A stretch of 64,000 nucleotides of DNA from Curvularia clavata (GCA_023920165.1 CP089278.1:248001-312000), one strand, 5' to 3'; shown: positions 16,368-56,642, counted from the first letter of the stretch. Translations and numbers: made by a program. The notes: generated by a model not told the origin, from the letters alone.

Positions 16368-17393
16368 GCAGAGGGTATGGGCTCAGGGGCCGGCGCTGAT
16401 CAGTGCGCTATGCGAACGACTGACCTTGGAAGCGGGTAAAAAGAATGCGGAGACGATGGAGCGAGCGACAGAGTTGGAAATGCTAAGTTGGGCTGGACAG
16501 CATGCAACTCGAGAAGCTTGTCGTCATGCTAGTATGGGCCGTGCTGTGTGCACACGGACAATACTAGTAGGTGGGGAAGGGTCTCCCATTCTCGCCCATG
16601 TCCATACCACACCTCTCTTGTCCACTCACCGGCGCACACGTCGCATGCCCAGTTCTGCATGGAGAGTAATATATCGAGCTTGTGACGCGCCTTGTCTCAA
16701 ACTGCACCACATCCACTGAGACGCCAGCATTCCATTTGCACGTATGGCGCGTCCTGCACCCCACTAAACCATCTGTAGTCAGGAACATTCTCCGCTCATC
16801 TGCTCGCCTAATGCAGGTAATGTGCTCTAGCCCTGATTAGACCTTCCAATGTCTCAGTCAGTACATGGACATTCATTCACGTGACCGTGGCTGTCTTGCC
16901 CTGATAAGTCTCCGACCAGGTTCCTGAGGTGTCTGTCACGTGAGTTATATTCGTGACAAATGACTCTCAATCGGATCATATTGAGACACAAAGGGATATA
17001 TATGCAAAGATTTATTGTGGGTAGTCGTGGCTGAAGAATAGATCTGATAAATATGCAACCCGTATCTTGCTTTTACTACGATTACCATGATCCACACTTC
17101 AGCAGATGGTGACCTGTAGACAAAGATCAAACTTTCCAAGTCGTTTGATGTCTACTTTGTTAACAAAGCTCAGGGAACCATGCTAGTACCGAGCCCTGCC
17201 AAGTATCAGCTCTAATTACATGGAACCGTTAGCTTAGGCGAACGTTACGGGGTTTTCTTCCTGTGTCGCAGCACGGCTCTATTGCACCATCTGCATGATC
17301 ACAAGGTGTCGATCAAGATTTCCCCAACCCATATTCTTCTCTTCCCATAACAAAAGCAATTACGCCTCTTCAAGCTCCACTAGTATTCTCCAA

Positions 17394-22159: not shown

Positions 22160-24485
22160 ATGCGCTTCCCTTCTACTGCCGTGGTTCTTGGAGCGTCATT
22201 GATATCTACGTCGTACGCAATTGGCCCTGATTGCGTTCGTGGACCGTTGAGTACCAATGCCATTTGCGACGTCAATGCATCGCCTTCCAAGAGGGCTGCG
22301 GCTCTTGTCGCAGCCATGCAAACACAGGAGAAGCTGGACAATCTCGTCAGGTACGCGTATTAAGCAGCTCACCGAAGAACTTATATCTAATTGATATAGC
22401 AAATCCAAGGGCGTACCTCGCTTAGGTCTCCCAGCATACAATTGGTGGGGCGAGGCTCTACATGGTGTGGCAGGTGCACCAGGAATCAACTTCACTGGAG
22501 CCTACAGCAAGGCCACATCCTTCCCCATGCCACTGATGATGGCGGCTGCTTTCGACGATGATCTTATCTACAAGGTCGCCAATATCATTGGAAATGAAGC
22601 AAGGGCATTTGGAAATGGTGGCGTCGCCCCTGTAGACTACTGGACTCCGGACATCAACCCATACCGCGATCCTCGATGGGGCCGTGGCTCAGAAACTCCT
22701 GGAGAAGATATCCTCAGAATCAAAAAGTACACCAAGAGCCTGCTCGCTGGCCTTGAGGGTGACAAAGCCCAGAGGAAGATTATTGCAACCTGTAAACACT
22801 ATGTCGGTTACGATATGGAGGCCTGGGGTGGTGTCGATCGACACAACTTCAATGCGAAAATCACAATGCAGGACTTGGCAGAGTATTACATGCCGCCGTT
22901 CCAGCAATGTGCCCGAGATTCAAAGGTCGGATCGTTCATGTGCAGTTACAATGCAGTCAACGGTGTCCCAACGTGTGCCGACACCTACGTTCTTGAAACA
23001 ATTTTGAGGGATCACTGGAACTGGACGGATAGCAACAACTACATTACTAGTGACTGTGAAGCTGTTGCCGACATCTCTCAGAACCACAAATATGTCAAGA
23101 CTCTTGCGGAAGGCACAGCACTTGCTTTCACTAACGGCATGGACCTTAGTTGCGAATACTCGGGGTCATCGGATATCCCAGGAGCTTGGAAACAAGGCCT
23201 CCTCAATATCTCTGTTGTAGACAGGGCCTTGAAACGACAGTATGAAGGCCTTGTTCATGCCGGCTACTTCGATGGCGCCAAGGCAACTTACTCGGGGCTG
23301 AGCTCCAAAGACATTAACACACCCGAGGCACAGCAGCTGTCACTTCAAATCACAGCAGAAAGCTATGTTATGCTAAAGAACGACAAGACGCTTCCACTAC
23401 CGCTCACAAAGGGATCGAAAGTGGCCATGGTCGGTTTCTGGGCCAATGATTCATCCAAGCTCCAAGGAATCTACAGTGGTCCCGCTCCTTACTTACGTTC
23501 GCCTGTGTGGGCTGGTCAGCAACTGGGATTGAACATGGCCATTGCTAACGGTCCCATGAATCAAAACTCAAGCGTTACCGACACTTGGACTGCCAATGCG
23601 CTGAAGGCAGCACAGGCTTCCGATTACATCCTGTTCTTTGGTGGCCTTGACTCGTCAGTGGCGGCAGAAGGCTATGACCGAACAGACATCAGCTTTCCTA
23701 AGGTGCAAATTGATCTCCTCACTAAGCTATCCAAGCTTGGAAAGCCACTCGTTGTCACCCTCCTGGGCCATATGGTGGATGACTCTCCTCTCATGGCCAT
23801 GAAAGGTGTCAACTCGATCATCTGGGCGAACTGGCCTGGCCAGGATGGCGGGCCAGCGTTGATGCAAGTCATTTCTGGAGCGACGGCCGTTGCAGGTCGT
23901 TTACCAGTAACCCAATACCCAGCGAATTACACCAAGCTTTCTATGCTTGATATGAGCATGCGACCCCATGCAGACAGCCCTGGCCGTACTTACCGTTGGT
24001 TCAACCAGTCTGTCCATCCATTCGGTTATGGCCTACATTACACCACCTTTGATGCCAAGTTTGCAAGCGAGAAAGGCCTGACCTACAATATCGAGGATGC
24101 AATGAAGAGTTGCAAGCAAGAGTACCCCGATCTGTGCGAGGTCGCACCACTTGAAGTTACGGTGTCAAACAAGGGTAATCGAACATCGGATTTCGTTGCG
24201 CTGGCTTTCATTAAGGGTGAAGTTGGACCTAAGCCATACCCTCTGAAGACCCTGATTTCGTACACGAGGCTACGAGGTATCCAAGGCGGTAGCAAAAAGA
24301 TGGCATCACTTCCGCTTACACTCGGAAACCTGGCTAGAGTGGATGAATCAGGCAACACTGTTGTTTATCCAGGCGAATACACAGTTCTTCTCGACGAACC
24401 TACGCAAGCCGAGTTGAAGCTGACCATCACTGGTAAGGAGACGGTCCTGGACAAATGGCCCCAGCCGCCCAAAGCAGCCCAGTAG
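22160..24485 (+). CDS. Secreted GH3 beta-xylosidase (XlnD/Bxl1 subfamily)
   Basis: Signal peptide, GPDC..GPL...ICD, YNWWGEALHGVA, ATSFP, RDPRWGRGSETPGED, CKHY, nucleophile ITSDC, GRTYRW, FGYGLHYT, C-terminal Fn3-like region. One intron about 22351-22399. Confidence 0.93.
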
Positions 24486-25155
24486 AAGGGTCTTCAATCC
24501 TTCCTGGGATGGATGCAGTCTTAGTATAGATGATATTCACATGCCTTTCTAGTTGGCAATGGAACATATGCCTAGCTGCGCTCGCAATGTGAACAAAGAC
24601 ATTGAACCCATGCGTGTGGACGGAAGATTATTGAGATGCTTGATCGAAAACATTTTCTTGCAACGGGGTTCTGGATAGATTGCCATTTTTGGTGGGTCTT
24701 TTGGAACCCCCAGAATAGGCTATTATTGTTTCTGCTCACATGATATCGCGATTTTATGTAGGTAAGCGTGCGCGGGGTATCGTGTACCCAGTACACCCAT
24801 CTCTAACCCTTGCCTCCGCGTCCCTCTACCTTCCACTTCTTACGACCTCTTCGCAGACAAAAGCCCGGACTATCGCCCAACAATACCCACTCTGGAGCTG
24901 TATCCTGGTAATAAAGCCTTGTACTTTGGGTGATCGCTCCTTGAAGCTTTCGTATCATCCTAGGCAATGCAACCCAAGAGTGGAACTTGACGCATGGTGA
25001 CCAATTTCTCCGTCGCCCGTTGCCATGACGCTACTTTGCGTCGTGCCATGCAGCACATGCATCATGACTTTTACCGTAGACTAAAAGGTAGTTAAAGTCG
25101 ATAATGTTAGCGTAAGGATGCGCTCCAGCTACACCTTCAGCAATAGAGCACCACC

Positions 25156-26940
25156 ATGACAGTCGTTTCACTTTTGTTCGCAGCGTCTATGCTCACGCTT
25201 CAAGTTGGGGCGAAACGAGTGCGCTCCCCAACGCCTCCTATGGGCTGGAATTCCTATAACACTTGGAACTGCCTTCCAGACGAGGAAAAGATCCATCAGA
25301 GTGCCCAAGGACTAATTGATCTTGGATTCTCGAAAGTTGGATATAGCTTTGTAACTGTTGATTGCGGCTGGAATTCACGGGATCGAGACGCCGAAGGGAG
25401 GCTCCAATGGAACGAGACGCTGTTTCCTTCCGGTGGCAAGGCACTTGGTGATTTTCTTCATGGCCTCGGACTGGACTTTGGTCTCTACTCTGGCGCTGGC
25501 TATCTACAGTGTGGATCTGAATCACTACCTGCAAGTCTGGGGTTCGAGCGACTGGATGCAGAGAGCTTTTCTGAATGGGGTGGAGACAGCCTAAAGTATG
25601 AAACCATCGTTCTCCTCAGCTCGGGAGTGTCATTAACAGAAAAGATAGGTACGATAATTGCTATTCGACGTCCAATACAACTATGGTCGACTCCAGCTCT
25701 GCCGAGGCACAATCACCAGCTCGCTTTCAGCACATGGCAGCCGAGTTGGATGCTGTAGATCGCGAAATTCAGTACTACGTTTGCCAGTGGTAAGATATTA
25801 CAGCTTTATTTTGTTTGCTCCTGCTGACTATGTGAAGGGGTATCGGAACCAACGTAGGCGAATGGGCTGCTGAGATTGGCAACACATGGAGAATGAGCAA
25901 TGATATTTATAATGCCTGGCGCAGCATCTGGCGCATCACGAATCAGATTGTCCCATATTTCAGGCATACTACTGTCGGTGCCTTTGCCGATATGGACATG
26001 TTGATGTAGGTACTTTACAGGAGTACTCCGAACATCTGCTGACGAACACAGTGTTGGTCTCCGTGCACTTTCTGAAGAAGAGGAGCGCTTCCACTTCGGC
26101 ATGTGGGCAATCAACAAATCCCCTCTGATCATGGGTGCAGCCCTTGATCCAAAGCGCCTCAGCCAAGCCTCGATAGATATCATGACAAACAAAGAGGTAA
26201 TTTCCATTAACCAGGATCCGCTGGCTAAGCAAGCACGACTAGTACAGCGCGATACAGAAGGTGAATGGGATATCTGGCTGGGTGAGCTTTCCGGTTCAAG
26301 GCAAATTCTGGGGATCGCAAATTGGAGAAATGACTCTCAGACTGTCCAAGTGGATATGAATTCGCTGGGCATTGATTCCGCCAATGTACGCGATGTCTGG
26401 GCTGCGAAAGACCTAGGCACTATGTCTGGCTCCCAAAGTTTTGACCTTGCTGGTCATGAATTACGCTTGTGGCTATTGTCTGATGTAGCCACAGCTACTC
26501 CGCTGACCTCCGGGCCATACTATTCTGGCACCGACGCAGCTCTCTCTGGACCAGCGCACACAGCATCTTGTGCTGAAGGGGCATGCTTACCAGCAGGTTC
26601 CAAAGTCCAATACATCGATCGCAGCGCTGGCGTGCTCTTTTCCAATGTCAGTGCTAGCTCCGCTGGCAAGAAGCTTCTAAGCATCGACTTTGTTAACTAT
26701 GACTACGCATTTACTACTGCCTGGGAATGGGGTGATAACACACGAAACATGACGGTTGCTGTAAACGGCAAAAAGGCAAAGAGATGGACATTCCCTCTCT
26801 CCGGTGGAAACTGGGAAGAGAGTTTGGCGCTTAATATTGAGGTGGACGGATTTGTTCAAGGCGACGGGAACACGGTAGAGTTCAGAGGCTACGGAGACGG
26901 ATTTGGGCCGGATTTAGTCGGCTTCCGGGTCCTCGAGTAA
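25156..26940 (+). CDS. Secreted GH27 alpha-galactosidase-type glycosidase with C-terminal CBM35-like module, 4 exons
   Basis: TPPMGWNSYN, VDCGW, FGLYS, LK-YDNC (spliced), WRMSNDI, FADMDML, HFGMWAINKSPLIMG, INQDPL. The C-terminal beta-sandwich has C..GACLPAGSKV. Confidence 0.9.
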
Positions 26941-27203
26941 TTGAGTGGAGCTTGGAATGACTGTAGCTTGATTCCTAAAACTGAACCTATTGAGCCGGCT
27001 GACGATGTTACTGCGGTTGAAAACATTGATTTTCTTGTCCCGCCCAGCATATAGCCGTTCGGTGCTGATCATACCCCAAAGGAGCTGTGGAGAACCCCGC
27101 ATTTGGGGAAGCAGTGCTTGGGCGCGGGTCAAAGACCCCCGAACATATGATGTGAACATTGAGGTACGTTTTTTGCCTTCGACTCCAAGACAACCAAGCC
27201 ATT

Positions 27204-29840
27204 ATGCAGCTAGCATTACATACATCGACGCCGCTCACAACGGGCTGGACGTTCAAGCAAGGTGATCGCTCATCCGCCAATCCCCTCCTACCCGCACATG
27301 ACGCACCGACTGAGGTACATCGTGACCTTGTGAGAAATGGAAAAATCAAGGATCCATTCGACGACCTCAATGAGCTATCGGCACGCTGGGTCGGTGACGA
27401 GACATGGACATACTGTACGACCTTCTCCACGCCCACTAGTCATGGCGGATCGGGTGTAGCTACAGAACTTCGATTTGAAGGACTGGATACATTCGCTTCC
27501 GTCTATCTGAATGGAGCCTTGATTCTCGAATCCGACAACATGTTTGTAGAGTACCGGGTTGATGTTACTGGTAAGCTCAAAGACGGAGACAACTCACTGG
27601 AAATTGTTTTCCATTCCGCGCGGAAGAAAGGACTCGAGCTTGTCAAAGCACATCAAGAGCATCGATTTATTGTACATCAGACTGAGATCTCAAGAGGGCC
27701 GGTTCGCAAGGCTCAATATCACTGGGGGTGGGACTGGGGACCGATCCTCATGACGTGTGGCATATGGAAGCCAATTTCGCTCGATACATGGACAGGTCGA
27801 ATCTCTGACTTGGTAATAAATTATGAGCTTTCGGACGACTTGAAATCTGGGAAAATTACAGTTTCAGTTGATTGGGAGGGGTCCGTTAGCCAAGTGGCTT
27901 TCACCGTCACAAATAGAAGCAGTGTTGTCAAGTGGCACGCTACAATAGACACCGAGCTTGGAGCGCGGCATGGAACTACAAAGGCTCATTTCGATATTGA
28001 AGACATCGAGCTCTGGTGGCCACGGGGCTATGGTGGCCAGGACATGTACACTGTCGAGGCGGAAGCTTATGTGCATTCTGACGCCTCCAAATCGCTAAGG
28101 CTCCACTCCATATCCCGAGATATTGGCTTTCGTCGTGTCGAACTCATCCAAGAGCCGGACGAATATGGCAAATCATTCTATGTCCGTATCAACAATGTCG
28201 ATATTTTCTGCGGTGGCTCCTGCTGGATACCCACAGACTCATTCTTGACGCGTGTCGCGTCTGCTGATTATCATGCTTGGGTGAAGCTCGCCGCTGAAGG
28301 AAATCAAATCATGCTTCGCATATGGGGCGGTGGCATCTACGAAGCCGATGCTTTATATGATGCGGCAGATAAACTGGGTGTACTGATTTGGCAAGACTTT
28401 ATGTTTGCATGCGCCAACTATCCCGCACATCCAGAATATTTGAAGAGCGTAGAGACAGAAGCCAGACAGAACGTGCGGCGATTGAGAAACCATCCAAGCA
28501 TAGTAATTTGGGCGGGCAATAACGAAGACTACCAGATTGTGGAGCGATATGGGCTTCAGTGTGATCCGGACGACAAGGACCCACAGTCGTGGCTGAAAAC
28601 CAATTTTCCGGCGCGCTTCCTATATGAACACTTGCTACCGATGGTAGTGTCTGAGGAATGCTCAAATGTAGCCTATCACCCAAGCTCGCCTTTTGGTAAT
28701 GGCAAATCCACCGTCCTAAAAGTCGATCCCACAATTGGCGATGTTCACCAATGGAATGTGTGGCACGGCACCATGGAGCCTTATCAAAAGCTCCCAGAAT
28801 TGGGCGGCCGCTTTGTCTCTGAGTTCGGCATGGAAGCGTACCCGCACGTCTCTACAATTGAGCGTTGTATAACGAGGAAAGAAGACCGCTACCCAGGCTC
28901 CATGGCCATGGACTTTCGTAACAAAGCCATTGGCCACGAGCGACGCCTCATAAGCTACGTAACCGAGAACTTCCGCATACGATGCGATCTGGAAGGCTTC
29001 ACTCATCTCACCCAAGTCATGCAGGCAGATGCCATGTCATGGGCGTATAGGTCCTGGCGCCGTGACTGGGGCTCGCCCGACAGCCGCAAATGCGGAGGTG
29101 TGCTAGTCTGGCAGCTCAACGATTGTTGGCCGACCATGTCATGGGCTGTGGCTGACTACTATCGCGTTCCCAAGCTAGCTTATTATGCGATCAAGCGAGC
29201 TATGCAGCGCGTGACTATCAATGTGCAGCGCAAGAACAAAAGCTGGACTATGCGACCTGCTGATGAGTTTTGGCAGCGAGACACCGGACATATCGATATG
29301 CAAAGGCTGTGGCAACAAGTTGAGTATGATATTTGGGCTGCTAATAGCACGACTGAAGAGATCAAAGGTAGCGTTGACATCAGTTATGTCTCGATCAAGA
29401 CCGGGTTTAAAGTGGGTCAAGGACCTCGACAAGATGTCCTCATTGCTGCCAATGAAACTACAGAAATTTTCAATCAGCATTTGGCAGATGTGAATATCTC
29501 ACCGCAATCAGACGAATCTTTCGATCGTACCGAAGTTGAGCCTTTCGTTATTCAAGTCGTGCTGGAGGTCGCTGGCCAGTGCATTGCAAGAGACCTGTCT
29601 TGGCCAGAACCAATCAAGTATCTCTCGTTTGAAGATCGAGGAGTAATGGTAAAGTATTCAGATGACTTCGCCACGGCTTTCGTGTCTGCGGAAAAGCCAG
29701 TCAAGGGCTTTGTATTCAGTGAGAGAAAAGGCATACAGCTGAGCGATAATGGCTTTGACATCATGCCAGGGGAGACACACCAGGTGAAAATCAGCGGCTG
29801 CAACTCTAGCAAGCTGGAATGGAGGTATATCGAGATATAA
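27204..29840 (+). CDS. GH2 beta-mannosidase, no signal peptide (intracellular MndB-like)
   Basis: RKAQYHWGWDWGP, RIWGGG, VLIWQDFMFAC, WAGNNE (acid/base), RFVSEFG (nucleophile), VWQLNDCWP. Single exon. Confidence 0.93.
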   Translation: MQLALHTSTPLTTGWTFKQGDRSSANPLLPAHDAPTEVHRDLVRNGKIKDPFDDLNELSARWVGDETWTYCTTFSTPTSHGGSGVATELRFEGLDTFASVYLNGALILESDNMFVEYRVDVTGKLKDGDNSLEIVFHSARKKGLELVKAHQEHRFIVHQTEISRGPVRKAQYHWGWDWGPILMTCGIWKPISLDTWTGRISDLVINYELSDDLKSGKITVSVDWEGSVSQVAFTVTNRSSVVKWHATIDTELGARHGTTKAHFDIEDIELWWPRGYGGQDMYTVEAEAYVHSDASKSLRLHSISRDIGFRRVELIQEPDEYGKSFYVRINNVDIFCGGSCWIPTDSFLTRVASADYHAWVKLAAEGNQIMLRIWGGGIYEADALYDAADKLGVLIWQDFMFACANYPAHPEYLKSVETEARQNVRRLRNHPSIVIWAGNNEDYQIVERYGLQCDPDDKDPQSWLKTNFPARFLYEHLLPMVVSEECSNVAYHPSSPFGNGKSTVLKVDPTIGDVHQWNVWHGTMEPYQKLPELGGRFVSEFGMEAYPHVSTIERCITRKEDRYPGSMAMDFRNKAIGHERRLISYVTENFRIRCDLEGFTHLTQVMQADAMSWAYRSWRRDWGSPDSRKCGGVLVWQLNDCWPTMSWAVADYYRVPKLAYYAIKRAMQRVTINVQRKNKSWTMRPADEFWQRDTGHIDMQRLWQQVEYDIWAANSTTEEIKGSVDISYVSIKTGFKVGQGPRQDVLIAANETTEIFNQHLADVNISPQSDESFDRTEVEPFVIQVVLEVAGQCIARDLSWPEPIKYLSFEDRGVMVKYSDDFATAFVSAEKPVKGFVFSERKGIQLSDNGFDIMPGETHQVKISGCNSSKLEWRYIEI

Positions 29841-42112: not shown

Positions 42113-43045
42113 GTGGTATATCTTCTTGCCTGAAGATAGAGGTTTCGTGGGATTTATATCGGATAAAGAGGCTACAGATGATGAAACATATGTTCACTCT
42201 TCTGCCTCTGCTACGCCCGTATCATCCTACTTAAAATTGCTAGATATCCCTACATCGCTCTTTCTCATTAGCCCATCGATGCCGTCAGATTTTGTTGCAC
42301 ATGGAATGAAATGTGGCTGAGCACAGTGACTGCGTGACAACCATTTTAATTTTCAGGTTCCGGTTTTTCGTAATACTCACCATGATCCAAACACCTTTCT
42401 GCGAAAAGCTGTGTGGAAGGTTAAGAGTTGATCTCGTAGCTCGCTCGGAGCTGGCAGAATCAAATTGTGATGTCGTTGCTTGTGCAGAAGTCGCTCCTTC
42501 CTATGCCCGCCCCCGTCTCCTCTTTCCGCAACCGAAGTGCCGTTGGTCCAAAGAAAGCAGGTAAATTAAACCTATAAATAGCGTGTTTCTCTCCACTATC
42601 ACATTGCATACTACTCAAGCGAAGGCGCGCGATATTGCCAAGGATAGAGGACCAGTCATCCTTGTGCGGTCTGTGCTATCGCACGAGCCCGCGCGACTCG
42701 AACTACAGCTTGTAGGGCGCAATATTGTGATAGTGGCGCATACGAACGCAAGCTGAAGATGCACCTTCTTGACTCAGCGTTATTGAACCCACAGTTTCTC
42801 CAATCAGTGTGGCTCGATGGTAAGAAGGCAGATGTCAAGGCTGACTTCGCACGGTAGCTTTGCCACCGGTGAAGACCCAAGTATTCGATTGCAGTTGTCC
42901 ACATCCTCACCCGGGTTTTGGCTTGACTTCTGTGCCTGCGACGAACTCCAGATGCGTCCACGTCCCACACATAAAGCAAAGATCAATTTCACTCCTATCT
43001 TTACACCTTCGACCGTTGTACCTGACCGGGGAAACATCAAGCGAC

Positions 43046-45845
43046 ATGCCACCTGATACATCCGAGGACATGTCCGAAACAGCCAACACGAGCTTGGCAG
43101 GTAGTGCTCTTAACGCTGAAGGTGCGGACCACGACGGTGAACATGCTTCTGGCAACCCGAATCACAGCGCGTCTGGAGGGACAGAAAGCCTGGATAGAGA
43201 TCCGGATTTGATGCGTGCCTTACGCTTATTCAAGTTGACTCGAGATATCAGCGCTTGTCATGCAATGGCTGCTTCTGAAAAGGCTCAATCAAAGCGTCCG
43301 ACTGGGGGTTTCGTCACGCCAAATCCGCCAACGGTGTTACGAACAGTTTATCGACAGCCCGTCAAGGGGCTCATGACACATCCAACTTACGATCGGGGTT
43401 TGGACGAGCGCGAGTATGACGAGTATCGTGATTCTGCTTCAGGCAGTGCCATAGAGCTGAAGAAGGATGTCAGGGTCATTCCACCCAACAGTATCTCGGG
43501 AGCTCGATCTATCAACGGTACTCAAGACATCATCGATCATATCGTTTCCGAGAAAATGATCATCCGGTCGCCAGCTCTAATCAAAACCATCAAGTCTGTT
43601 GTTTCTTACTGGCCTAGCTCTGCGTATTACGATAATCAGACCAGACTGGAGTTGAATCGCCCATACCGATCAATCTGCGTTTATCGTGACGAGTTTCAAC
43701 ACGCCCTGGAAAGCGACAAGGCTGCATACGATCGTATCACTGTGAGTGAAAGACGCAACAAGGACGCCAAAGAGCTTGCCAAGTCAATCGAGGAACTTGA
43801 AATGCTTCTTAATGAAGTAGACAAAGTACAGAAAGATCCCATTGCAGAAGAAAAGCGGAGAAACACAGGAGACAAGGGCCGTCAAATCCCGCCGAAAGCA
43901 ACTTTCGATATGTTGTGGATGCTGTACAAACCTGGTGAGCAAGTCTATGTTCAGACTGAAGACTTCGAGGGACTGTGCCGAATTCGCTTGTTGGTATGGG
44001 ATCGCGGCAGAGCCCTCAGTACTGACGCTGAGGACCCCTATGCTGCCGTTGAGCTCAATCTATGGTATTTGGATCATGACGGTGAGTTCTTATGCCACAC
44101 TTAATTGTCTACTTGCTGAGTTCGGGCTCGAGGAACTGGTCTCAATCGACGTCATCATTGTCTCAAGATTGAGCGCTTCCAGGGCGAGCACGAAATCCTG
44201 GAGCTACCAGCGTACCCTATCAAATACATGCCCCTAAGCGCTGGCACTAGCTTTAATCTTACGGAACGAGGTAAGAAGTATTGTCACTGGATTGCGAAAG
44301 GTTTTTCGCATTGCTGGTACGATGGACTTATTTCGAGACATAAGTCTACGCCTTACACCAAGCATATGCACATCGGTGTAAGTAGAGTTCTATCAACTAG
44401 TCACAATTGCTGAGATATCTAGTATCGTGGAAAGGTCGTCATTGATCCAGAATACTATCATCGGGAAAAAGGTCGTGTTGAAGGGGCAAAATGGCTGGCA
44501 ACATCAACATCGACTAGTCCTGCAAATCGCAGACCTGATGCGTTCACAAAGCTCGACCCTGCAGACACCAAAACCTTGGAAAATCCCGATCTGCCCCTAC
44601 TTCCGCAGTGGATCCGTGGATTCACTATTGGAACCCGTGGTGTAAGAGACTGGGGTGAGCACCACGTCCTGTCTGTTCATCTCTTACTAACATGTCAGCT
44701 TGGCTCAACGTGGATCAGTTGAAGGATTGTAAGTAACCCTGCATTCTCCTGGTACTTGGGATTGACATGCTAGACACGTACAAGCACGACCTCATCAACA
44801 CAGTTGCTTTCTCGGATAACAATGACTTGGATCACATTAAAGCCGCCACTAAGGCATACCGAGATACGCCCGAAACGTTCAAACCTGATCACATTGCAGA
44901 GAAAGGAGAAGGCCGTATCATCCTTCTCCACGGCTCCCCAGGACTCGGAAAGACATACACCGCTGAATGTATTGCGGAGTGGTCTGGTGAGCTAATCCGT
45001 TCACTAGTGGATATATGTAGCTGATTGTGTTCAGGCCGTCCTCTACTACGTCTAACTTGCGCTGAGCTTGGTATGTTGAAATGATATCCCGGGCGCAATA
45101 AAAGATCAAGTGCTGAGTGCATCTAGGGATGGATCCAGCAACCCTCGAGGCCAATCTCAATAGACACTTCAGACGTGCTGAACGCTGGGATGCAATAGTT
45201 CTCATCGACGAAGCGGATCTTTTTCTAGAGCTGCGAGACAGGCAAAGATCTCTGGAGAGTGTAGCAGTCGTTGCAGGTAGATTAACATGATCTTCTCACT
45301 TATATACCATATGTACCTGATCTGATATGAGTAGTGTTTCTTCGAGCTTTGGAGTACTACTCAGGCATCATGTTCCTCACTACGAACCGCGTTCAATCCT
45401 TCGACCCAGCAGCACTCGATCGTATGATGCTCATCATTCGCTACCAGCCTCCGGACGAGGAAGTCAGACGCCGCATTCGGGAAAGTTGCATAAAAAAGAT
45501 GAACGAAATGAAGCGCTTCGATTTCACCGCAGATGCTGAAGAGGCCTACCGTGAGATCGATAAGGATAATAAATATGCTTGGTCTGGTCGGGAGATAACT
45601 TCAGGTATGCAGATACGGCAGGATTGTGTAAATTCACTAATATCATGTCAGTCTTGAAGCATGCGTCATTACTTGGGGAGTACGATGGGAATAATGATGG
45701 AGGAGTCTCCAGCGTCAAGATCAATGGAGACCACATTAGAAAGGCTATGAAGAAGATCAAAGACATTGATGTGTACTTCAACGGTATAAAGAGTAAGAAG
45801 GGGACAGATAAGATGATCCGACTGGAGAAAGCTGGGCAAAACTAG
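43046..45845 (+). CDS. Fungal AAA+ ATPase (DUF7025-like N-domain plus classical AAA core), about 9 exons
   Basis: ATFDMLWMLYKPGEQVY, FQGEHEILELPAYP, YRGKVVID, Walker A LHGSPGLGKT, Walker B VLIDEAD, FLRALEYYSGIMFLTTNR, arginine finger LDRM, WSGREI. Many short GT-AG introns. TATAAATA at about 42573. Confidence 0.88.
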
Positions 45846-45967
45846 ATGGTAATGACCCGTAATAACTACCATGGCTGAATGACTGCTTGTCTGGACAACA
45901 TATTTGTTTTCATCAAATATTTTCAATTAAGAATGATTATGCTTGCTCCCTATAAAAACTTCTCATC

Positions 45968-48450
45968 TCATCTCTGCCTACTCTCTGAATCCAAATCATC
46001 TCCCCACATCTCAACGTAACCCCTCATCCCCCCCAAGTCGATCCCCCGTTGACTTGGAATCATGCTCTCTATCTCAACTAATCGATCTTCAGATGCCAAG
46101 AATGTTTTGAAAGTAATGAGCCCATTGCCATCTTCGACACAGCGACCGAGAATAAAAGAGATCATCTCCATGATATGGGTCGTTGGAAAACAGTCTTCGA
46201 GGCCGAGCATGATGACTGCGATTGGCTTTGGTAGAGGACCATATTGCTCGAGTAAATGGCGTAGATCTTGCACGTTGCTCACAAGATCCTTGGATGACAG
46301 GAAAGTGAAACATTTCAGCAAATTTCTGCCGAAGTCGGCGAAGATATCTTCCCCTGTTGAGGTATGGTAGTCGCTGATATCCAGAACGATAACATGGCTG
46401 CCTTCATGTTTGAGCATGTAGGCCAGAATATGTGCAGCGGAATGCAGCCATTCAGATTGATCCTCCTCATAGTCATAGAAGTAGAGCATGGTCGCCTTTC
46501 CTTCTAAGAAATCTTGTAGTTCGTTTTTAGCTTCTTCTGGGATCTCCAAAGCCTCTGGTTGTGGTATGGTGCTGCCCCAAATGCTAGGCGGAGGCGGTTC
46601 TGACTCAACAGTCTTAATACTGAAACCGCGGCGGTCCATTTCGACTTCGTGAACATAAGATGTAGGAAGTAGACTGGACGGTGCGTGGTCTCTTTTGACT
46701 CGCTTTATCTCCAAGTATGACACAATCAGATCATGCCCTGCTTCCCTGGCGAGCGCTATCGGGGTTTTGTTATTGATATCGGTGTCTTCCACCTTCCAAT
46801 CCGCATCTACTAGGCAGACTACGCGGCAGAAGTCGCCGTTCTTTGCTGCACGATGAAGCGGCGTCTCTGCAAGACTGCTACCTGTTTGCGAGCTATGTGG
46901 TACCTGTACAAACTCTTTAGCCATCGAAATTCGATCTGAGTCCTTAGCATCTGGGTGTAAAATATCGTAGAAATCGAGGACCGCCTCCCAAGAGAAGACC
47001 CTAGCACTGGGCTCACTGCGAAGCATTCCAACAGCCAATCGTAAATAGCGCACTAGCTTCCAGGGTTCTGTCTTGTCTTCTAAGTTATGATCTTGCAGAC
47101 GTTCCAGCCATCTGTCCACGACAGGTATGCTGTTATAGTATGCTACCTTCATTCCATCAGACATCACGTGGCCATCCATGTGGACTGGAAATGGTCGGCT
47201 GGATCGCTCCAGATTGCTTCTCTCGTTTCTGAACTTCTGCAACTCAGAACCTTTCCAGCCATAACAAACGATCACTGCCATTTCCACCATGATACACCCG
47301 ATTGACCACATATCAAATGCGCGGCCATGATTCTTAGGTAATACTCGGTACCCTTTCTCATCGAAAGTCTCTGGGGGACAGTATTCGCGCGTGCCAAGCG
47401 CTTTAGTAGAGGTAGCACCTGAGCCATCCTTTACGAGCCTAAGATGAGCCATACCAAAATCCGCCAAGATCGCTTTGTTTTCGTCCATCAGTATGTTGGC
47501 CGGTTTCAGGTCATGATGGCAGGTCCACATCTCATCTTCATGAGGCTTATGGAGATGGGCGAGTCCTTGTAGTACTTGGTATACGAATTCGTACAACTTC
47601 TGCCGTAGGAGCACTTTAGGTGTATCATCGTTAATCCAGGACACGCCTTTGTCCAGAAACCTCTGCATTGAGCAGTTAAACCATGGGCATATGGTGACTA
47701 TGGTTATCTCTGAAGGTGCTGCTGTGTCTGAGCTGCGCCAAGGCTCCGTATAAGAAAGGACGATTGGTATGATGTACTCATGCTTCCGTCGACGAAGTGT
47801 CATGGCTTCTCGTTTTACAACTTTTTCCTTTCTGCCGTAGTCGTCATTGTCTATCATAACTGTTTTCTTTGCGAACAGCTGCCTCTCGTCAGTATTCATC
47901 TCTGGACGTCCGCGAATCCCATTACCTGTCCTGGTGGCCAGCCTTCAACATGGCCATCTGCGATCTGAACTTGTTCAAGTCTACCGAAGGAGGAGCTGTC
48001 GATCCCTGAAGGCTGAGGTTGTACATTCTTGAACAAACTTTTCACCTCCACGTCGTCCGGTGGCTCAAGATGGACGGTGGTATTCCAAAAAGGTGCGAGA
48101 ATCCATTGTGATCTTCTTAGAACACGAACATGGGCTTCGTCTTTGATATGCAGACAACTCTCTGATCCTATCGGAAGAATCTCGTCCGTAGTCTGTGCCT
48201 CATATAACTCGTGCAGGTATTGGGGTAGATTTGCGTATATGAAGACGGCAAATAATTTCAGAGCTTTAGAGGAGAAGAATTCTGTAAGTCTATCCCGACT
48301 TGCAGCTTCAGCGTTCTCTGGACACTCAAAGTACCCTTGAACTTCTTTTTTCGTAACAATATTCTTTAAAGCAGTCGTAGAAACGAATCCGTGTGCTCCT
48401 CTCTCGGCTTCACGGCGCAGCACTTCATAGAGGCTCATTAAATCTGACAT
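45968..48450 (-). CDS. Ser/Thr protein kinase, 2 ankyrin repeats and degenerate NACHT-like C-terminal domain, 2 exons
   Basis: Intron 47879-47925 joins ORFs 47896 and 45968. FAKK (VAIK Lys), REA (alphaC Glu), HHDLKPANIL, DFG, GTREYCPPE, DMWSIGC. Ankyrins TPLHRAAKNG and TPIALAREAGH. C-terminal KPIAVIMLGLEDC and FKTFLAS resemble NACHT Walker B and sensor-1. Confidence 0.88.
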
Positions 48451-49350
48451 GGAAACCAGGAAGAAGCTATATCGTGAGTTTTCAATTTCTTAGCAGTGAG
48501 TTTATGCTAGCGAAAGATGACTGATGAGGCTATAAACTGGGTTGACTGATTGTTGCTCAGCCGCACTCGATTTTCCAACCCCCTGTCTGCCAACCGCGAT
48601 TAGCCTTGGGTATATGCTGCGCCACTATCAGGCACTTTCAGCCTGATGCGTGTCTCTGATATGGTCTCTCGCAAGGCTCCAATCTGAATCTATGATGACT
48701 GCGCATTAGTCAAAAGCCACATGCACTGGCTGAAGACCGCTCACTTTCCAGGCAGGGCTCTCTCCGCTACTCCCTCCCTTTTCGATGATCGTTCCGGTGC
48801 GCCATTTTCCTTGGTTTGAGTATGCTCAGCTCATGCACTGACCAAGGTGATGGTGTCTGTCAGTGGTATATGAACTTACCTCCTAGATAACAGTATACAA
48901 CCAGATTCTCTGATATTATACCATCCTCGGGAGATACACTGTCATCAGGTAGATCGTTAAAGGTAGACATGCTCGCTAGCAAAATTTGTTGATAATTTCC
49001 AAACAGAAAGGGTTTCCGAAAGAAAAGTCGATGGCTAATCCTTAGTACTCGCTTGTTGGTGCAGTGCGCATCATAGCGAAGTTCGGATACCCCGCTCTTA
49101 TACAGTCCTCTTCGTTGTCAAGGCTGAGATCCTTCAATAGTGGTCAACTTTTCTGGTGAAGCGTGCATAAGTTGGGACGCCTTGCATTAATTCAGCCATC
49201 AATCACTGGGAAGCTTCTAGCGGGGCCTGCTTCTATGTTTCGTTGTCATACATATTACTGAGCATATCAACGCGGAAGCCTTGGTCAATCCGCCTTCGTC
49301 TTCCACGGTATACCATCGCTAAGCATACTTTTTATCAGCTTTCGACGCGA

Positions 49351-51428
49351 ATGGCGGACCCTCTTTCGATAGCTGCGAGCATCGCATCACTATTGACGCT
49401 CGGTATCCAGTCATGCCGTTTCCTCAGCAATTTCTTTTCGAAGATCTCCGATGCCCCAGTCGAGGCGAGGCTATATCAGCTATGTTTCCAAGCTATGGAC
49501 GCCACATTTTGTGAGCTTCAGGCAATTTGTGAAAGTTGGCCGGCAACTGGAGAGGTCACCTTCCCCATGGGGTTTGAAGACCGTCTGACGTCATGCATGA
49601 AAGATCTCCAGTCCGTCGATGCTTTCATCAGAAAAGCCCAACCAGACATTTATACGACAACAATGAAAAGGGCCTGGGCCAAAGTAAAATATGCTATGTT
49701 TGCCGATGACCGCCTCGGGAAATTCTCCGTTCGACTGCAGCAATACCAAGCGTCGTTCACACTGGACTTGATAGCCATTAACACGTTAGTTCACATGAGT
49801 AATTTCACTAATAGTTACTCACATATTCGCAGAAAGTTGGCTTTGCTTAATTCTCGTCAACTCACGCAGATAGTATCACAGACGCAAAAGTCCATTGAAC
49901 AGCGCTCACAGTTCACAATGGCCAACGTAACTTCCACGTCCGATTTGATGAGCTTTAGTAAACCTTTGGGCTTTTTAAACCTATGGTCGTGCAATTCAGA
50001 CATGATTTCAGTAGTCATCTACAGACGGCAGGGTGCAAGAGCAGGATTTGGTGGTGTTCGAATCAAGCTCAAGTTCCAGGTTGGATCGTGGATCAGGTTC
50101 GTGTATTTTACCTTCTTCCCCGCGAGGGCCGAGATGGGCTCTGGCATTTCTGCGCATTGCACTCTTATGCTTCCAACAATACTGCCTTTCAGCGCCCAGG
50201 TGTTTCGCTACGCATGTGATGGCAATACAAACACCATACGATCAATGTTTCTCTCGCGCAAGGCAACGCCAACTGATACTACGCCCGACGGTGCAAGCCT
50301 TCTGAATGTAGGAGACATCCACTTGGATTCGTGAAGAACTTTCAATTGACTCTCATCAGATTGCGACACAAAACGGCCACCTCGAGCTGGTTGAGTTCCT
50401 CTTACAATGTGGTGCAGACGTCGAAGCATCCGACGATCATGGCCGGTATTTTCTCATTCTGCATTATGCATGGTATATCCTCACTGATTGCACTTAGCAC
50501 AGCACTACACCGAGCAATGCAAAGCTCCGGACAGATCGAGATATGTAGGGCATTACTCCGAAAGGGGGCCGACCTTACTTGCCTCGACATAGAGCAAAGA
50601 ACGCCTTTACATAACTTTTTCAACGAGACGACAAGTGAATTTTTACTTAATCAAAATGATGTTTTGGAATTGCTTGAACTTGACTGCTACGGTATGAGCA
50701 TTTTACATCATGCAGCATGGTCGAGCCAGAGCAAACCAGAGCACTTTTCGTACTACTTGGAAAGGCAGCCGGCGCTGTACGACCTTCCTGACCACGAAGG
50801 CAGATGTCTGCTACACTATGCTTCTGAACGTGGCAACGTACCTTTAGTAGAATACCTATGCAGCGTCCCGAATGCGGACACCGCCCTTCGAGATGCTACT
50901 GGACGGATGCCCATCCACTATGCAGTGCGAAGTCGACGGGTACAGGTGATCGATGTACTGATCTCTAACGGAGCGGACATAAGCTCAGTGGGCGCGAGGG
51001 GGTGGAACACAATACACGAAGCCGTGATGAGGGACAACGTCGAGGCGATTATCCATGTGTGTACACTCCTTGGAAGTCGGGTAGACTTTATGCTAAAGGC
51101 TATCGACCGGCAAGGTTTGACGCCGCTCGCACTGGCTAAGAAACGTAAAGCAGTGGCTGCACTGGATTATCTGAAGACTCATCATCTTGTTGATGCGCAA
51201 GAGAACCACGCGTCACAAGATAATGGTGATCTGCGTGGGCCGGAACATAGTCTTGTATCTTCACTTGGGAGAAATCAGCCATGCATTCGTCATGGTACAA
51301 TGCGCTGGCATTTTCGTGACCCGGCACACAAGCTTTATTTACGGTTATTTTTTGCGATCGGCTTTCTCTCATTGCTATTCAACTTCAGAAATGGTTCTGT
51401 ACTACTCGAGATAATGCCATATTCTTAG
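49351..51428 (+). CDS. HeLo-like/SesA (fungal STAND N-terminal) domain, ankyrin repeats and C-terminal hydrophobic anchor; no NACHT; 4 exons
   Basis: MADPLSIAASIASLLTL...ISDAP...KRAWAKVKYAM...L..F..RLQQYQASFTLDL is the typical pattern. Ankyrins TALHRA, TPLH, SILHHAA, CLLHYAS, MPIHYAV, NTIHEAV and TPLALA. Introns about 49785-49831, 50308-50359 and 50447-50497. Confidence 0.85.
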
Positions 51429-52344: not shown

Positions 52345-54913
52345 TTAGAAACCAATGCGGCTGAAAGTATACTTCTTGGCAACAGGCTTTTTGGTATTTA
52401 ATGTCTTGATGTGAGCAATGGAATGCATTGCCTTGCCGCCGGTCTCCAGGTCCATCTTCTTCGTGGGGTTCAGCCAGGTTCTTATTTGTTGGCTAAATTG
52501 TTTCTGTAACTCTTTGTAAGACGACGCAGCCAACGTATCCTTATACGATTTTAGAATGGTATATAATCCTGAAGCGAGGATATGCAGTTCTCGTGCCAAC
52601 GCCTTCAGCTTGAGCGGAGCTCCAACTTCGGAGAGGAAGTTGTTGAGTGGTTCAGACCAATTCTGTCGTCTTTTCAATGCGGTTGGAGGGTAAGACACCT
52701 GCTCCCCTCGTATAAACAGCCCACAGCATCAGAGCTGACCCACACAACTTTCTGAGGGCCTGAGTCTCCTTGTTCAGTCGTGCAGCACCCTTCAACGCGT
52801 CGATTTTGGTCACACAATTCTCAATCTGGCATCTGAAGCTTCCAGCGTCCATGTCTCCAAGGATTCCTTTCTCGCCATTCGCCAGGTCAGTCAGCCCCTT
52901 CAAGGACTTTATCGCATTGCGGCGATGAATTCCTACGACTGTATTTCTCTTGATCAGATCTTGTACTTCACTCTCGAAGTACATGTTATCGGTGGCGATG
53001 AACTGAAGGACAGCAGCTCGAGCGGTGCTTTCGGGTGGCGCAGTGTCGGCTGAAGGTATAACCGGAGCAGCTTCGGGAGCAGTTTCGGGAGCGGCTTCTT
53101 GAGTTCCATTGAACTTCTCTGCAGTCGCAGCAAGCAACTTAGAAAACCCGCTGGAGGCGGGTACAGACTCTTTCTGCTGCTCAGTACTAACAGCCTCTGC
53201 GGTTGCAGCAAGAAGCTTTGCAAAACCGCTGGATGCTGGTGCAGAGTCTTTTTGTTGGTAAGCATTTACGGCCTGCGTAGTTGCTTGAACCAGTTTCGCG
53301 AAGCCGCTGCCAGCTGGCGCTGAGGGTGCAGCTGGGACTGAAAGTCCTCCGGAAGGCAAGGTGTTCGGCGCAGATTCGGCCGCTCTGATTGGTAAGGTCG
53401 TCTTGGTTGGTAAAGTCATATAAGATTTGTTGGCGGGGACTGACTTCGGGGCGAGAGGGTCCTGGAACGGAGTGGGATTGGCGATAGCCATGCAGACGAT
53501 CTCAATACCTTGAAGCATGTCGAATGCCTCTGGGAAGAAATCCAGCTTACCTTTGAGACAGAAGTACATTGCTTCGAGACGCTCCAACGGCCAGACACCC
53601 TTGAGCTTATCAGCGCCGACCTCCTCCAGAGGTATCTCTTGCTTGCACTCGGTGAGCAACCCGTAAATGGGAAGCAAGACCTCATTTACCAAGGCTCTCG
53701 TAACACCGGCCGCTTTCTCGCGGTCACCAGTCATTAGAGCAGCTTCGATTAAGTCGATGCCCTTTGTGAGATCGGGAGCATAAAGAGCCAGGCGCTCCAC
53801 GCGATTGATATATCTCTCGCGGTAGTGATTGAGAAGGATCTGAATTCTTAACCGCTCGGCTCCCTCCTCCTCAGCTTGACGTTTTTGCTCTTCTTCCTGG
53901 CGGCGCTGCTCAATTTTGTGTGCTTCCCATTGCTCAAGTAAATAGTTGGTAGCCAATTGCTGATTATAGTCGGCGATGGCAGGATCTATATGATTGTGAC
54001 CAGAAGGAAGAAGTTCGAACTTCATCCGTTCCGGACCAAGGATATTCATGAGCCGCTCCTGAACGTATTTTCGACTCTCTTCGTCCGTCTGGCTCTCGTA
54101 GAAAGATCTGTCATGAGCCAAGTTTAGCGTTGCTAGATACGAAGGCGAAGTCAAGCGCTGCGTATACAAGACCTCAGCTGAAGGATTAGCCGCGGCCCTA
54201 CATAGTGAGATACCTGAAGTAGCCATTTCAGCTCTACATGCTCGATGTTGGTCTATACGCTTTTGGACTGCTGCCATCTGTCTGTACTCCCTCCACAGAT
54301 CTCGGCGCTTTCTTTCCGCTATTCCCACTTTGATCTTCGTTGCATGTTCCCGCTTGATGGAGCATAGCTCGACCGATTGGGGGCTGTAGACAGTCTCAAA
54401 GAGGGCGGGAGTGACACCCTGAGTAGTAAAGACGGGCCCCTGGAGAGTTTGGAATGCATCTGGCTCCCATGCGGCTGGTGATGCTTCAACCGTCTGGGGG
54501 CTGCACGCGTCGTCCACACATGCTGTAGTACCAAAGACGTGGTCATGGAGAGCTTCAAGGGTATCGTGATCTGTCGCAAGTAGCTGGGACTGGAGGTTAT
54601 TCGCACTCTCGACAGGTACTGTAGCGACGCGTTGAACAGAACAGACAGAATGAAGAGTTTGCTGGCCATTTTGCTCTCCTGCAACTAGTGGTGCTGCAAC
54701 CGACTGGGACCTGTAGGCGTTCTCGATACTTGCTACATCGGCAGTGGTAACAGTATGACCATACTCTCGAAGATTTTGGAGGGCTTTTCGCTCTCCTACA
54801 AGAATTTGGGCTCTGATAGACGCAAGTGCTTCCTTGGAGTTGTGTCTCTTTACTCTACCCATGCCAGTGAACTTGCTGACTGCATTGCAGACTGTTTCCC
54901 GGAATCCGCGCAT
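52345..54913 (-). CDS. Intronless orphan protein with coiled coil and tandem repeats; probable frameshift near 52700
   Basis: A 753-aa ORF overlaps a 117-aa ORF in another frame that reads like a continuation. No convincing intron joins them. TATA-like elements at about 55030-55050. Confidence 0.6.
53110..53325 (-). repeat. Three 78-bp (26-aa) coding tandem repeats
   Basis: APAGSGFAKLVQATTQAVNAYQQKDS / APASSGFAKLLAATAEAVSTEQQKES / VPASSGFSKLLAATAE. Confidence 0.85.
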
Positions 54914-56642
54914 GGTGAGTGTTAGAAGTGGTGTGTGGAATTTTTGAATGAGAAGTTAGTCTTTATGTTATGTTGAGTTGAGTTTGGAGATGTTGAATTA
55001 CTGTCGGAGGTTTCTGTTCTTAGGGGTTTTTATAGCTGTTCATATATAGACATTTAAGGTGTCAGACGATTGAGCTGACACTCCTTATGCTCATTTGTGT
55101 GAGGTCTGTGAAGACCTAACCTATTGACGGGGCGTTGTAGAGCACAATTATTTGTGAACTAACAGTTAGTTTGGAGAACAAAGAAAAGCTCCGGTATGCT
55201 CTCTGCAATTACCGTAAGCGAATGCTGAAAAATGAGACAAGCAAATGGATGTTGTAAAATCGGGTAGGACTATGTAAGTGCGGTTGGCCAGAAATTAATA
55301 TACCGTACATGGAGTTTTGTGCTGGTCCTCTCAAAGCAACTGCTTGTGCAAAGTTAGAAGCATCATAGTCCTTGGGTTTGAATGAGGCCGCTGTACACCA
55401 TTGTGTTGTTGCTGCACAGTGCTTAAGACAAGTGTCAACGTCTCGCCTTTCACACTGCGATAAATCAAACACTGATGGACGTGTGTTCTCTGCGACCATG
55501 ATTATGATTTTTGTTGCAGTAGAAGGTCTATCTGCACTGTCATAGGCGCAAATGCAGTGAAGACTGCGTGAGTTTGATGTCAAGGCAAAGGAGCTGGGGG
55601 AAGATATTTGCTGTGAGACGCCGGGGATCAGCCACTCAAACGCAGAAGCCAGGAAGAAGAAGTACTCCAATCATGGGACTTGGGTAGCAGCAGCAGACGT
55701 CTAGAAGGAAAGTCACGACGAGAAAGTGACGTCAAAAACACAGCTGTTTACCACATCTAGAAAACGTCAGCGTCTCCCCGCTAGAAGCCGTGCGCTGCGA
55801 ATATACCGTACTCGCATCATGTTGAAAACGTATCTCAACGCATATCTAGTATCGTGACAGGTAATCTGTACGAGGAATTCTGGAAGGCGTAGGTGGGCCA
55901 GGTGAAGCGCACACCTTTAACTACGGATGGCCATGAAAGAAATCCGTCCTAGCTACATCCTGCAGATTCATTATCTCAAAGTTTAGTGAAATAGATGCAC
56001 ACCAGATGAAAGCAGGGCGAGTGTCAAACCGAGGCATGAACGGACGACAAGAAAGTTGACAACTCCACGAGACAGGACTCAGCTGCAAACAAAATCGACA
56101 TCCACAAGGGCAACGAAAGACTTTCTGGCGCTCATCAAGCCACTCAGGGGAACCCCAACAAGCCCCACCAACGCCACGGCACCTGCATATCCGAATCTTG
56201 GTACAGTGGAAAGCAAACAAAAAAAGCCCGCCAAGACATCCCTTCAACACTGGCAAACCAAATAAAGAAGTGGATGCAGCAAGCCTAGACAATCAATCAT
56301 GCATTCCCCAAGTGTCTGGACCTACACCGCCCAGGAACACCCGCCAGGTACAGCGGGAAAGCGGCAAGGCATCCATAATCCTTCATGCTATGCACTGTCA
56401 GCCTTCCCGATTGCTCCTTTTGCAGCTTTGCACGTGACATCCGAAAATCGCAACACAGCACACGACACACTTCAGCCCCATTGATACGTAGTACTATACC
56501 TTTCTTGACCGCCACACCGCTCCATCTCACAGTTTCCCCCCCTTTCTCCCCCAACATTTCAGACACCAAGACCCTACCTTGCAGAACGCGCAAGCAAAAC
56601 CCCCAAGTCCTCCTCGCACAAGCCCCAGTGTGGCTGATCTGT

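Follow-up and report, generated by a model that had tools for sequence, protein, structure and literature searches.

A gene on the minus strand of the Curvularia clavata genome encodes a protein of 811 residues, in which a protein kinase domain and weak ankyrin repeats are followed by a C-terminal domain of about 175 residues. It lies at positions 45,968 to 48,450 of a 64,000-nucleotide stretch (GCA_023920165.1 CP089278.1:248001-312000; hereafter the window, with positions counted from its first letter). On balance, we favour the reading that the C-terminal domain is a pseudo-NTPase (pseudo-nucleoside triphosphatase): an AAA+/STAND (signal transduction ATPases having numerous domains) core without Walker A, Walker B and the downstream parts, most probably derived from a fungal NLR-type (NOD-like receptor; NACHT/NPHP3_N-like) or closely related ATPase, which would act as a nucleotide-independent surface. 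A first-pass annotation of the window, made from the DNA alone, had described the segment as a catalytically dead NACHT-like domain. All peptides it quoted are present in the order given, within one minus-strand open reading frame (ORF, 45968..47899), where they span 46058-46522 (-) and are contained in 46030-46550.

Predicted fold and lost motifs of the C-terminal domain

The domain and the three motif positions on which the reading depends are as follows.

46019..46540, minus strand: candidate pseudo-NTPase domain, residues 622-795, from the AlphaFold2 (AF2) model and its structural neighbours
46454..46477, minus strand: loop YDYEEDQS, with the place and length of Walker A on the model, no Gly-Lys-Ser/Thr
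46190..46222, minus strand: strand b3, IAVIMLGLEDC, in the position of Walker B, Leu in place of Asp
46088..46111, minus strand: strand b4, FKTFLASE, at the sensor-1 place, strand E168-173 in the AF2 model

When 1.84 billion cluster representatives were searched exhaustively by HMMER with the 204 C-terminal residues as query, four proteins were returned at E ≤ 0.001 (7e-55, 1e-23, 1e-10 and 1e-4), one from Alternaria alternata and the rest metagenome or assembly proteins. The known family thus comprises five lineages, counting the window protein, and includes Curvularia and Alternaria. The AF2 model built with the alignment of these five sequences has a predicted local distance difference test score (pLDDT) of 65.9 and a predicted template modelling score (pTM) of 0.69. 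Along the sequence it is composed of helix a0, b1, an 8-residue loop, a1, b2, a2, a2', b3, a3, b4 and a4. In this model the three-layer alpha/beta core superposes on AAA+/STAND nucleotide-binding domains, which places the domain in that class at the level of predicted fold. Foldseek against the PDB gave three matches at E ≤ 0.001, all of them Drosophila ORC3 chains (origin recognition complex, ORC; best E 4.8e-5, template modelling (TM) score 0.44-0.45), and the matches listed were all AAA+/STAND proteins, namely ORC subunits, Cdc6, CED-4, Rif2, RuvB, Clp, RFC and a wheat NLR. VIA-align, which is independent of Foldseek, was run over 48,161 representative chains and is read with scores within 1 Z unit as ties. 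Every classifiable title among its matches listed is an AAA+/STAND ATPase, and one (8d8k_W) is not classifiable.

4xgc_E, ORC5: 11.6 (3.5; 159)
7jgr_G, Cdc6: 11.5
1fnn_B, archaeal Cdc6: 10.7
2a5y_B, CED-4: 10.3
8rfh_A, NRC2: 10.0
8bob_D, MalT: 9.9
3te6_B, Sir3 AAA+: 9.9
6j5t_G, ZAR1: 9.7
1z6t_A, Apaf-1: 9.4
bacterial Avs proteins: 8.9-9.3

Rescoring of the best 999 Foldseek chains gave ORC5 (11.9), archaeal Orc1 (11.7), MalT (11.2) and CED-4 (10.4). The structural alignments to ORC3-, Sir3- and Rif2-type folds have 7-15% identity, which amounts to no sequence similarity. Animal NACHT chains (NLRC4, NLRP3, NOD2) are not among the structural matches listed, and this does not count against NACHT. 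The ESM Atlas has its own model of the protein, which matches AAA_35, AAA_16/AAA_22 and NACHT/NPHP3_N clusters with TM scores of 0.60-0.66 over residues ~606-803. Structure matches of that class fill 10 of the 10 rows listed, all of them 'under the bar' for naming a family. A P-loop NTPase fold therefore does appear in structure prediction, with two predictors giving an AAA+/STAND-type core. The Atlas search by language-model features placed NPHP3_N-bearing Ascomycota clusters first (0.95, 0.93 and 0.93), with 14 of 30 matches of this kind; NPHP3_N is carried by 15%, 47% and 17% of the members of the three best clusters.

The first-pass annotation had Walker A replaced by acidic residues and Walker B altered, and both descriptions are borne out. 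The loop after b1 is acidic in four of the five lineages, and GxxxxGK[ST] is found in none of them.

Window protein: YDYEEDQS
P0002: YEYVKDET
P0003: WGLNQTHS
P0004: WNFSATDWAD
P0005: YGVGYDDRS

In P0005, the most distant member, the loop has G in the first position of the motif and R-S in that of K-S/T, possibly a relic. The Walker B consensus is hhhhD followed by an acidic pair; in strand b3 Leu stands where the Asp is expected, and the Asp is kept in 0 of the 5 lineages. The NACHT-looking GLEDC at the end of this strand is found in the window protein only and in none of the four homologues. Conservation within the domain is highest in the motif of strand b4, where F, K, F and E are invariant in 5/5. 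Because the protein ends 16 residues past the domain, there is no lid, helical domain 1 (HD1) or winged helix (winged-helix domain, WHD), and the C-terminal domain amounts to the core alone, short of a complete NACHT module. Of the label 'dead NACHT-like', the first word is supported, since neither Walker A nor the Walker B Asp survives in any lineage, while NACHT identity is not established: fold class is the one testable defining feature by which the domain would belong to NACHT.

In the mechanism that we favour, the domain would derive from the nucleotide-binding domain of a fungal NLR-type or closely related ATPase and, given the loop that is acidic in four of the five lineages, would no longer bind or hydrolyse nucleotide. 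It may then offer a surface for interaction or regulation, independent of nucleotide, by which partners are brought to the kinase or the kinase is restrained, and the decoy or scaffold role suggested in the first-pass annotation would be of this kind. ORC3, Sir3 and Rif2 are other AAA+ folds without the motifs that act as interaction or regulatory surfaces. When residues 18-192 of the model sequence were modelled as a homodimer, the score was 0.01, which counts neither way.

Origin and pace of change of the C-terminal domain

Several results weigh against this reading. The AF2 model from the single sequence is poor (pLDDT 46), and the one described above is of middling confidence and built from five sequences. 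Structural scores within 1 Z unit are ties, so STAND and ORC/Cdc6 are not separable; the ORC/Cdc6 clade has the best structural scores, but the C-terminal domain is without its Walker/sensor motifs, lid and winged helix. No sequence method links the domain to NACHT or to any other family. In 5/5 members there was no Pfam match at E ≤ 10 to NACHT (PF05729), NPHP3_N (PF24883) or AAA families, and the same search gave one sub-threshold CbiA match (E 5e-4, 1/5) and one Thioredoxin_8 match (0.13, 1/5). The NCBIfam and PADLOC libraries yielded nothing relevant. PDB sequence searches returned noise only and no P-loop protein, with the b domain of protein disulfide isomerase (PDI) A3 as the best profile match (E 0.34).

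For hhalign, the profile of the C-terminal family (5 sequences, effective number of sequences (Neff) 2.6) was compared with 30 reference domains each of NACHT, AAA_35, NB-ARC and thioredoxin, taken from five cyanobacterial genomes. These references are thus cyanobacterial and not fungal, and NACHT was matched with 0.2% probability (P 0.25) in an alignment out of register, which again speaks against the reading, as do NB-ARC (0.9%) and AAA_35 (1.5%). Thioredoxin reached 1.2%. The controls were NACHT-NB-ARC with 99.7%, AAA_35-NB-ARC with 95% and AAA_35-NACHT with 82%. A comparison with shuffled columns (69 shuffles) adds no information, as its 'global' alignments of the P-loop families span just 3-16 columns; in it NACHT falls under the shuffle mean. 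NB-ARC, at 8.4, is above 69/69 shuffles yet over 16 columns only, and thioredoxin, at 8.5, is reached by 2/69. Just two NPHP3_N loci turned up, and the comparison with cyanobacterial NACHT is a weaker one than the profile-profile search against NACHT and NPHP3_N proposed in the first-pass annotation. Neither a Pfam match to the two families nor an hhalign match to cyanobacterial NACHT was found, while the Atlas features favour NPHP3_N clusters. For the proposed NACHT-like order of motifs, the sequence cannot show that it beats chance; what raises it above chance is the predicted fold.

A narrower version of the origin, which we hold only tentatively, is that the domain is a decayed NACHT/NPHP3_N of a fungal NLR specifically, and the protein an NLR relative in which kinase, repeats and the remnant of the NOD (nucleotide-binding and oligomerisation domain) have been rearranged into a new order. 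NACHT would be the most natural source. Dyrka et al. 2014 (PMC4986451) and a Sordariales survey (PMC12258605) describe fungal NLRs as built from Pkinase, NACHT/NB-ARC and ankyrin/WD40/TPR repeats, and report non-canonical P-loops in some of them. The tentativeness comes from the fact that only the Atlas feature search supports NACHT specifically, and even there NPHP3_N is found in a minority of the members of each of the best clusters. The missing Pfam match in all five members, the out-of-register hhalign result, the unconserved GLEDC and the lack of HD1 and WHD all stand against it. Moreover, the HMMER and word-index searches brought up no relative whose Walker A is intact; the latter, run with the C-terminal region, the 5-sequence profile and the middle region, returned family members and two ankyrin-only proteins and none else. 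Metagenome contigs were also searched with P0006 and P0003, and no relative was confirmed.

It is unlikely, in our view, that the domain is a lineage-specific alpha/beta domain without P-loop ancestry, whose AAA+-like models are an artefact of the shallow alignment or a convergent doubly-wound fold. This would account for the complete lack of sequence-level signal to any P-loop family, for a pLDDT of 65.9 from only five sequences and for Foldseek TM scores of only 0.44-0.50, and the weak hints to PDI A3 and Thioredoxin_8 point elsewhere. The superposition on AAA+/STAND domains by two predictors is what we set against it. A thioredoxin-like fold, the lead given by these hints, was dropped because it is absent from both top-50 structural lists and because of the low hhalign probability.

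The conservation of the domain was compared at two distances. Between the five long members, no other folded part of the protein is as poorly conserved as the C-terminal domain, as the pairwise identities show.

Kinase: 46-72%
Post-kinase region: 51-69%
Ankyrins: 42-80%
Linker: 15-57%
C-terminal domain: 26-49%
Tail: 10-38%

Nevertheless the domain is alignable from end to end with 19 invariant columns, and the reading frame is intact in 5/5 lineages and in 9 looked-up cluster members. A kinase and/or ankyrin region followed by the C-terminal domain is the layout common to all 4 relatives and the longer cluster members. The open frame and the invariant columns argue for long-term constraint, because neutral sequence would probably not stay alignable at such distance.

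Among near relatives, two DNA runs from other organisms (X12 and X15) carry a diverged form of the gene. The counts are small and come from contigs, with 40 of 43 differences listed; those of X12 were taken as one haplotype, as the shared contig depth of 6.8 suggests. X12 has 22 differences in the 522 nt of the C-terminal domain and 15 in the 1863 nt of residues 1-621 (odds ratio 5.4, p 7e-7). Between these near relatives the domain thus evolves at about five times the pace of the remaining gene. By codons, 7 changes are synonymous and 12 non-synonymous in the domain, and 11 and 4 in the rest (Fisher p 0.045). The ratio of non-synonymous to synonymous rates (dN/dS) is 0.10 for the rest of the gene (p 3e-5) and 0.46-0.57 for the domain, not significantly below 1 (p 0.16). 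The purifying selection that the first-pass annotation proposed to look for is therefore not significant for the domain at this distance, which is a further point against the favoured reading. For X15 the synonymous and non-synonymous counts are 4 and 9 in the domain, and 4 and 3 elsewhere. Q649R falls in the old P-loop, and S677K, T681N and G684W fall in the loop after b2. No stops or frameshifts were seen in the variant haplotypes. The domain is either kept but loosely held, or diversifying, and the data are compatible with both.

These rates would suit a functionless, decaying remnant of a gene fusion that drifts neutrally behind a working kinase-ankyrin protein, as would the low identity of the domain relative to the other folded parts. 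We find this quite improbable, since the frame has stayed open in all lineages and cluster members although their kinases are only 46-72% identical, the domain still aligns over its whole length with its invariant columns, and the variant haplotypes are free of stops and frameshifts. We give hardly any credence to a domain that still binds nucleotide or another phosphate ligand via a non-canonical pocket, because most lineages have an acidic loop and none has Lys-Ser/Thr or the Walker B Asp. In favour of such a pocket are P-loop relatives that function in spite of a variant loop, the G..(5)..RS still present in the loop of the most distant homologue, and the invariant H, K and E close to where the pocket was.

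One contig each in X12 and X15 matches the window just at 46463-46495 (~33 nt), with flanks unlike the window on both sides. In those samples these contigs may come from a paralogue of the C-terminal domain or from a far more divergent allele of it.

The kinase-ankyrin gene and its neighbourhood

The window DNA is fungal, and the 811-residue protein is letter-for-letter identical to the hypothetical protein yc1106_06735 [Curvularia clavata]. The remaining features of the gene are the following.

47926..48450, minus strand: exon 1, residues 1-175, N-terminal extension and kinase start including its degenerate glycine loop SSSFGR, from ORF and translation
47879..47925, minus strand: intron of 47 nt, GT..AG on the gene strand, from spliced contigs, the 811-residue public model agrees
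45971..47878, minus strand: exon 2, residues 176-811, stop codon 45968-45970
47189..47931, minus strand: protein kinase domain, residues ~174-405, intron inside, motifs FAKK, HHDLKPAN, DFG and CPPE
46937..47188, minus strand: post-kinase region, residues 406-489, best conserved in 7/10 pairs
46694..46936, minus strand: ankyrin repeats, residues 490-570, Ank_2
46541..46693, minus strand: linker, residues 571-621, 15-57% identity, pLDDT below 50 at the model start
45971..46018, minus strand: tail, residues 796-811, 10-38% identity, pLDDT below 50

The gene is transcribed, according to spliced contigs that two studies provide. Those of runs X3 and X7, whose RNA nature is a guess of the tool (no run with the gene is recorded as RNA), both join 47878 to 47926, which is the exact removal of the 47-nt intron. 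They cover 45941-48491 and 46053-48488 of the gene, respectively. A contig of the DNA run X12 (record 7, 46399-48087) reads through the intron unspliced. X3 record 17 spans 45941-47878 with no further joint; since the contigs show no other joint, the mature transcript includes the C-terminal domain. At three places these X3 and X7 contigs differ from the window: 46147 (G753C, C-terminal domain), 47331 (N358S, kinase) and 47663 (Q247Q, synonymous). Both runs have the same organism code as the best DNA runs carrying the gene.

The first-pass annotation had the kinase and the ankyrin repeats placed before the NACHT-like segment, and the Pfam matches agree, with Pkinase and then Ank_2 both upstream of it. 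From the N-terminus, the protein consists of an extension without a Pfam family, the Pkinase domain, the weak ankyrin repeats and the C-terminal domain. Pkinase (PF00069) is matched with E 1.1e-25 and 91 bits, and in a second search with E 6.8e-25 over residues 174-399; the 88-91 bits of the window protein lie above the cut-off of 31.7 bits. Residues 1-403 and 10-401 align to Ascomycota kinases in the ESM Atlas structure rows. The glycine loop is degenerate (SSSFGR), and the Ser/Thr kinase is probably active, judging by the kept catalytic motifs FAKK, HHDLKPAN and DFG. The ankyrin repeats, 2-3 in number, are weaker. Ank_2 (PF12796) is found in the window protein with 23.7 bits (E 7e-5) and in a second search with 23.2 bits (E 1.1e-4), which does not reach the cut-off of 27.3. 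In the homologues P0005 has 28.7 bits and P0003 26.6 bits against the same cut-off.

The head-to-head neighbour (49171-51428, plus strand), with the two starts ~900 bp apart, encodes a protein with PigL_N (PF17111, E 1.3e-6) followed by strong ankyrin repeats (Ank_2, E 2e-25). PigL_N is a type of domain that fungal NLRs carry at their N-terminus. This neighbour was checked for a hidden NOD, and the only ~100 residues between PigL_N and the ankyrins contain no Walker-like motif and no nucleotide-binding domain. Its product is in effect an NLR minus the NOD, adjoining a kinase with a dead NOD-like core. The tail-to-tail neighbour (42845-45800, plus strand), which ends <200 bp from the stop of the kinase gene, encodes a DUF7025 protein (E 2.8e-9). 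Among its downstream exon-like ORFs there is an intact Walker A, GSPGLGKT (44767-45024), and the protein is therefore a fungal AAA-type ATPase.

Further upstream in the window is a run of plant-cell-wall enzymes on the plus strand (7919-10639, 22395-24485, 25147-26940 and 27156-29840), consisting of a cellobiose dehydrogenase with CBM1, a glycoside hydrolase family 3 (GH3) enzyme, an alpha-galactosidase and a GH2 mannosidase-like protein, which is ordinary for a plant-associated fungus. Two long frames are present on the minus strand. The one at 52652-54955 (767 residues) has no Pfam family at E ≤ 0.001, and the one at 11499-16382 (1627 residues) has weak coiled-coil-type matches only.

Comparison with NLRs and other AAA+/STAND proteins

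The protein resembles fungal NLRs in having the same three blocks (protein kinase, STAND-type fold and ankyrin) in the same group of fungi. Unlike them, it has the order kinase, ankyrin, nucleotide-binding domain (NBD), where they have effector, NOD and repeats, and its NBD is without Walker A/B, HD1/WHD and a Pfam NACHT or NB-ARC match. It would therefore not be able to work as a nucleotide-driven switch. MalT, CED-4, Apaf-1, NRC2, ZAR1 and the bacterial Avs proteins have intact Walker motifs and the full NBD-HD1-WHD, and the C-terminal domain has neither. ORC3, the yeast Sir3 AAA+ domain and Rif2 are AAA+ folds reported to have abandoned the ATPase chemistry. They keep lid or winged-helix parts, which the C-terminal domain does not have, and act in chromatin or replication. 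A full-text literature search, judged by its listings, turned up no account of a kinase-ankyrin protein that ends in a motif-less NBD.

Helper NLRs are reported to be activated by the NB domain of Rx, a plant sensor NLR, in isolation (bioRxiv 10.1101/2023.11.30.569466), which is a precedent for a lone nucleotide-binding domain signalling to other NLRs. The Rx domain is a plant NB-ARC with its motifs intact, whereas the fungal C-terminal domain is motif-less. As a speculation to which we attach very little probability, the domain might be an 'NB-domain ligand': the motif-less polymorphic core would dock on the NBDs of canonical fungal NLRs or of the adjacent NOD-less PigL_N-ankyrin protein and so link the kinase, which would be a sensor or a guarded target, with the oligomerisation of NLRs while having no nucleotide switch of its own. 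The five-fold excess of substitutions would then reflect diversifying selection, comparable to that at fungal allorecognition loci.

Fungal NLR-type proteins shuffle their domains, yet their nucleotide-binding domain is taken as the indispensable switch. The small family described here appears to keep the core fold of this switch alone, stripped of its motifs, at the far end of a probably active kinase. If the fold assignment is true, it would be a clean natural case for what the surface of an NBD does without nucleotide. Such remnants escape all standard domain annotation, and censuses of fungal NLR-related genes may therefore undercount them.

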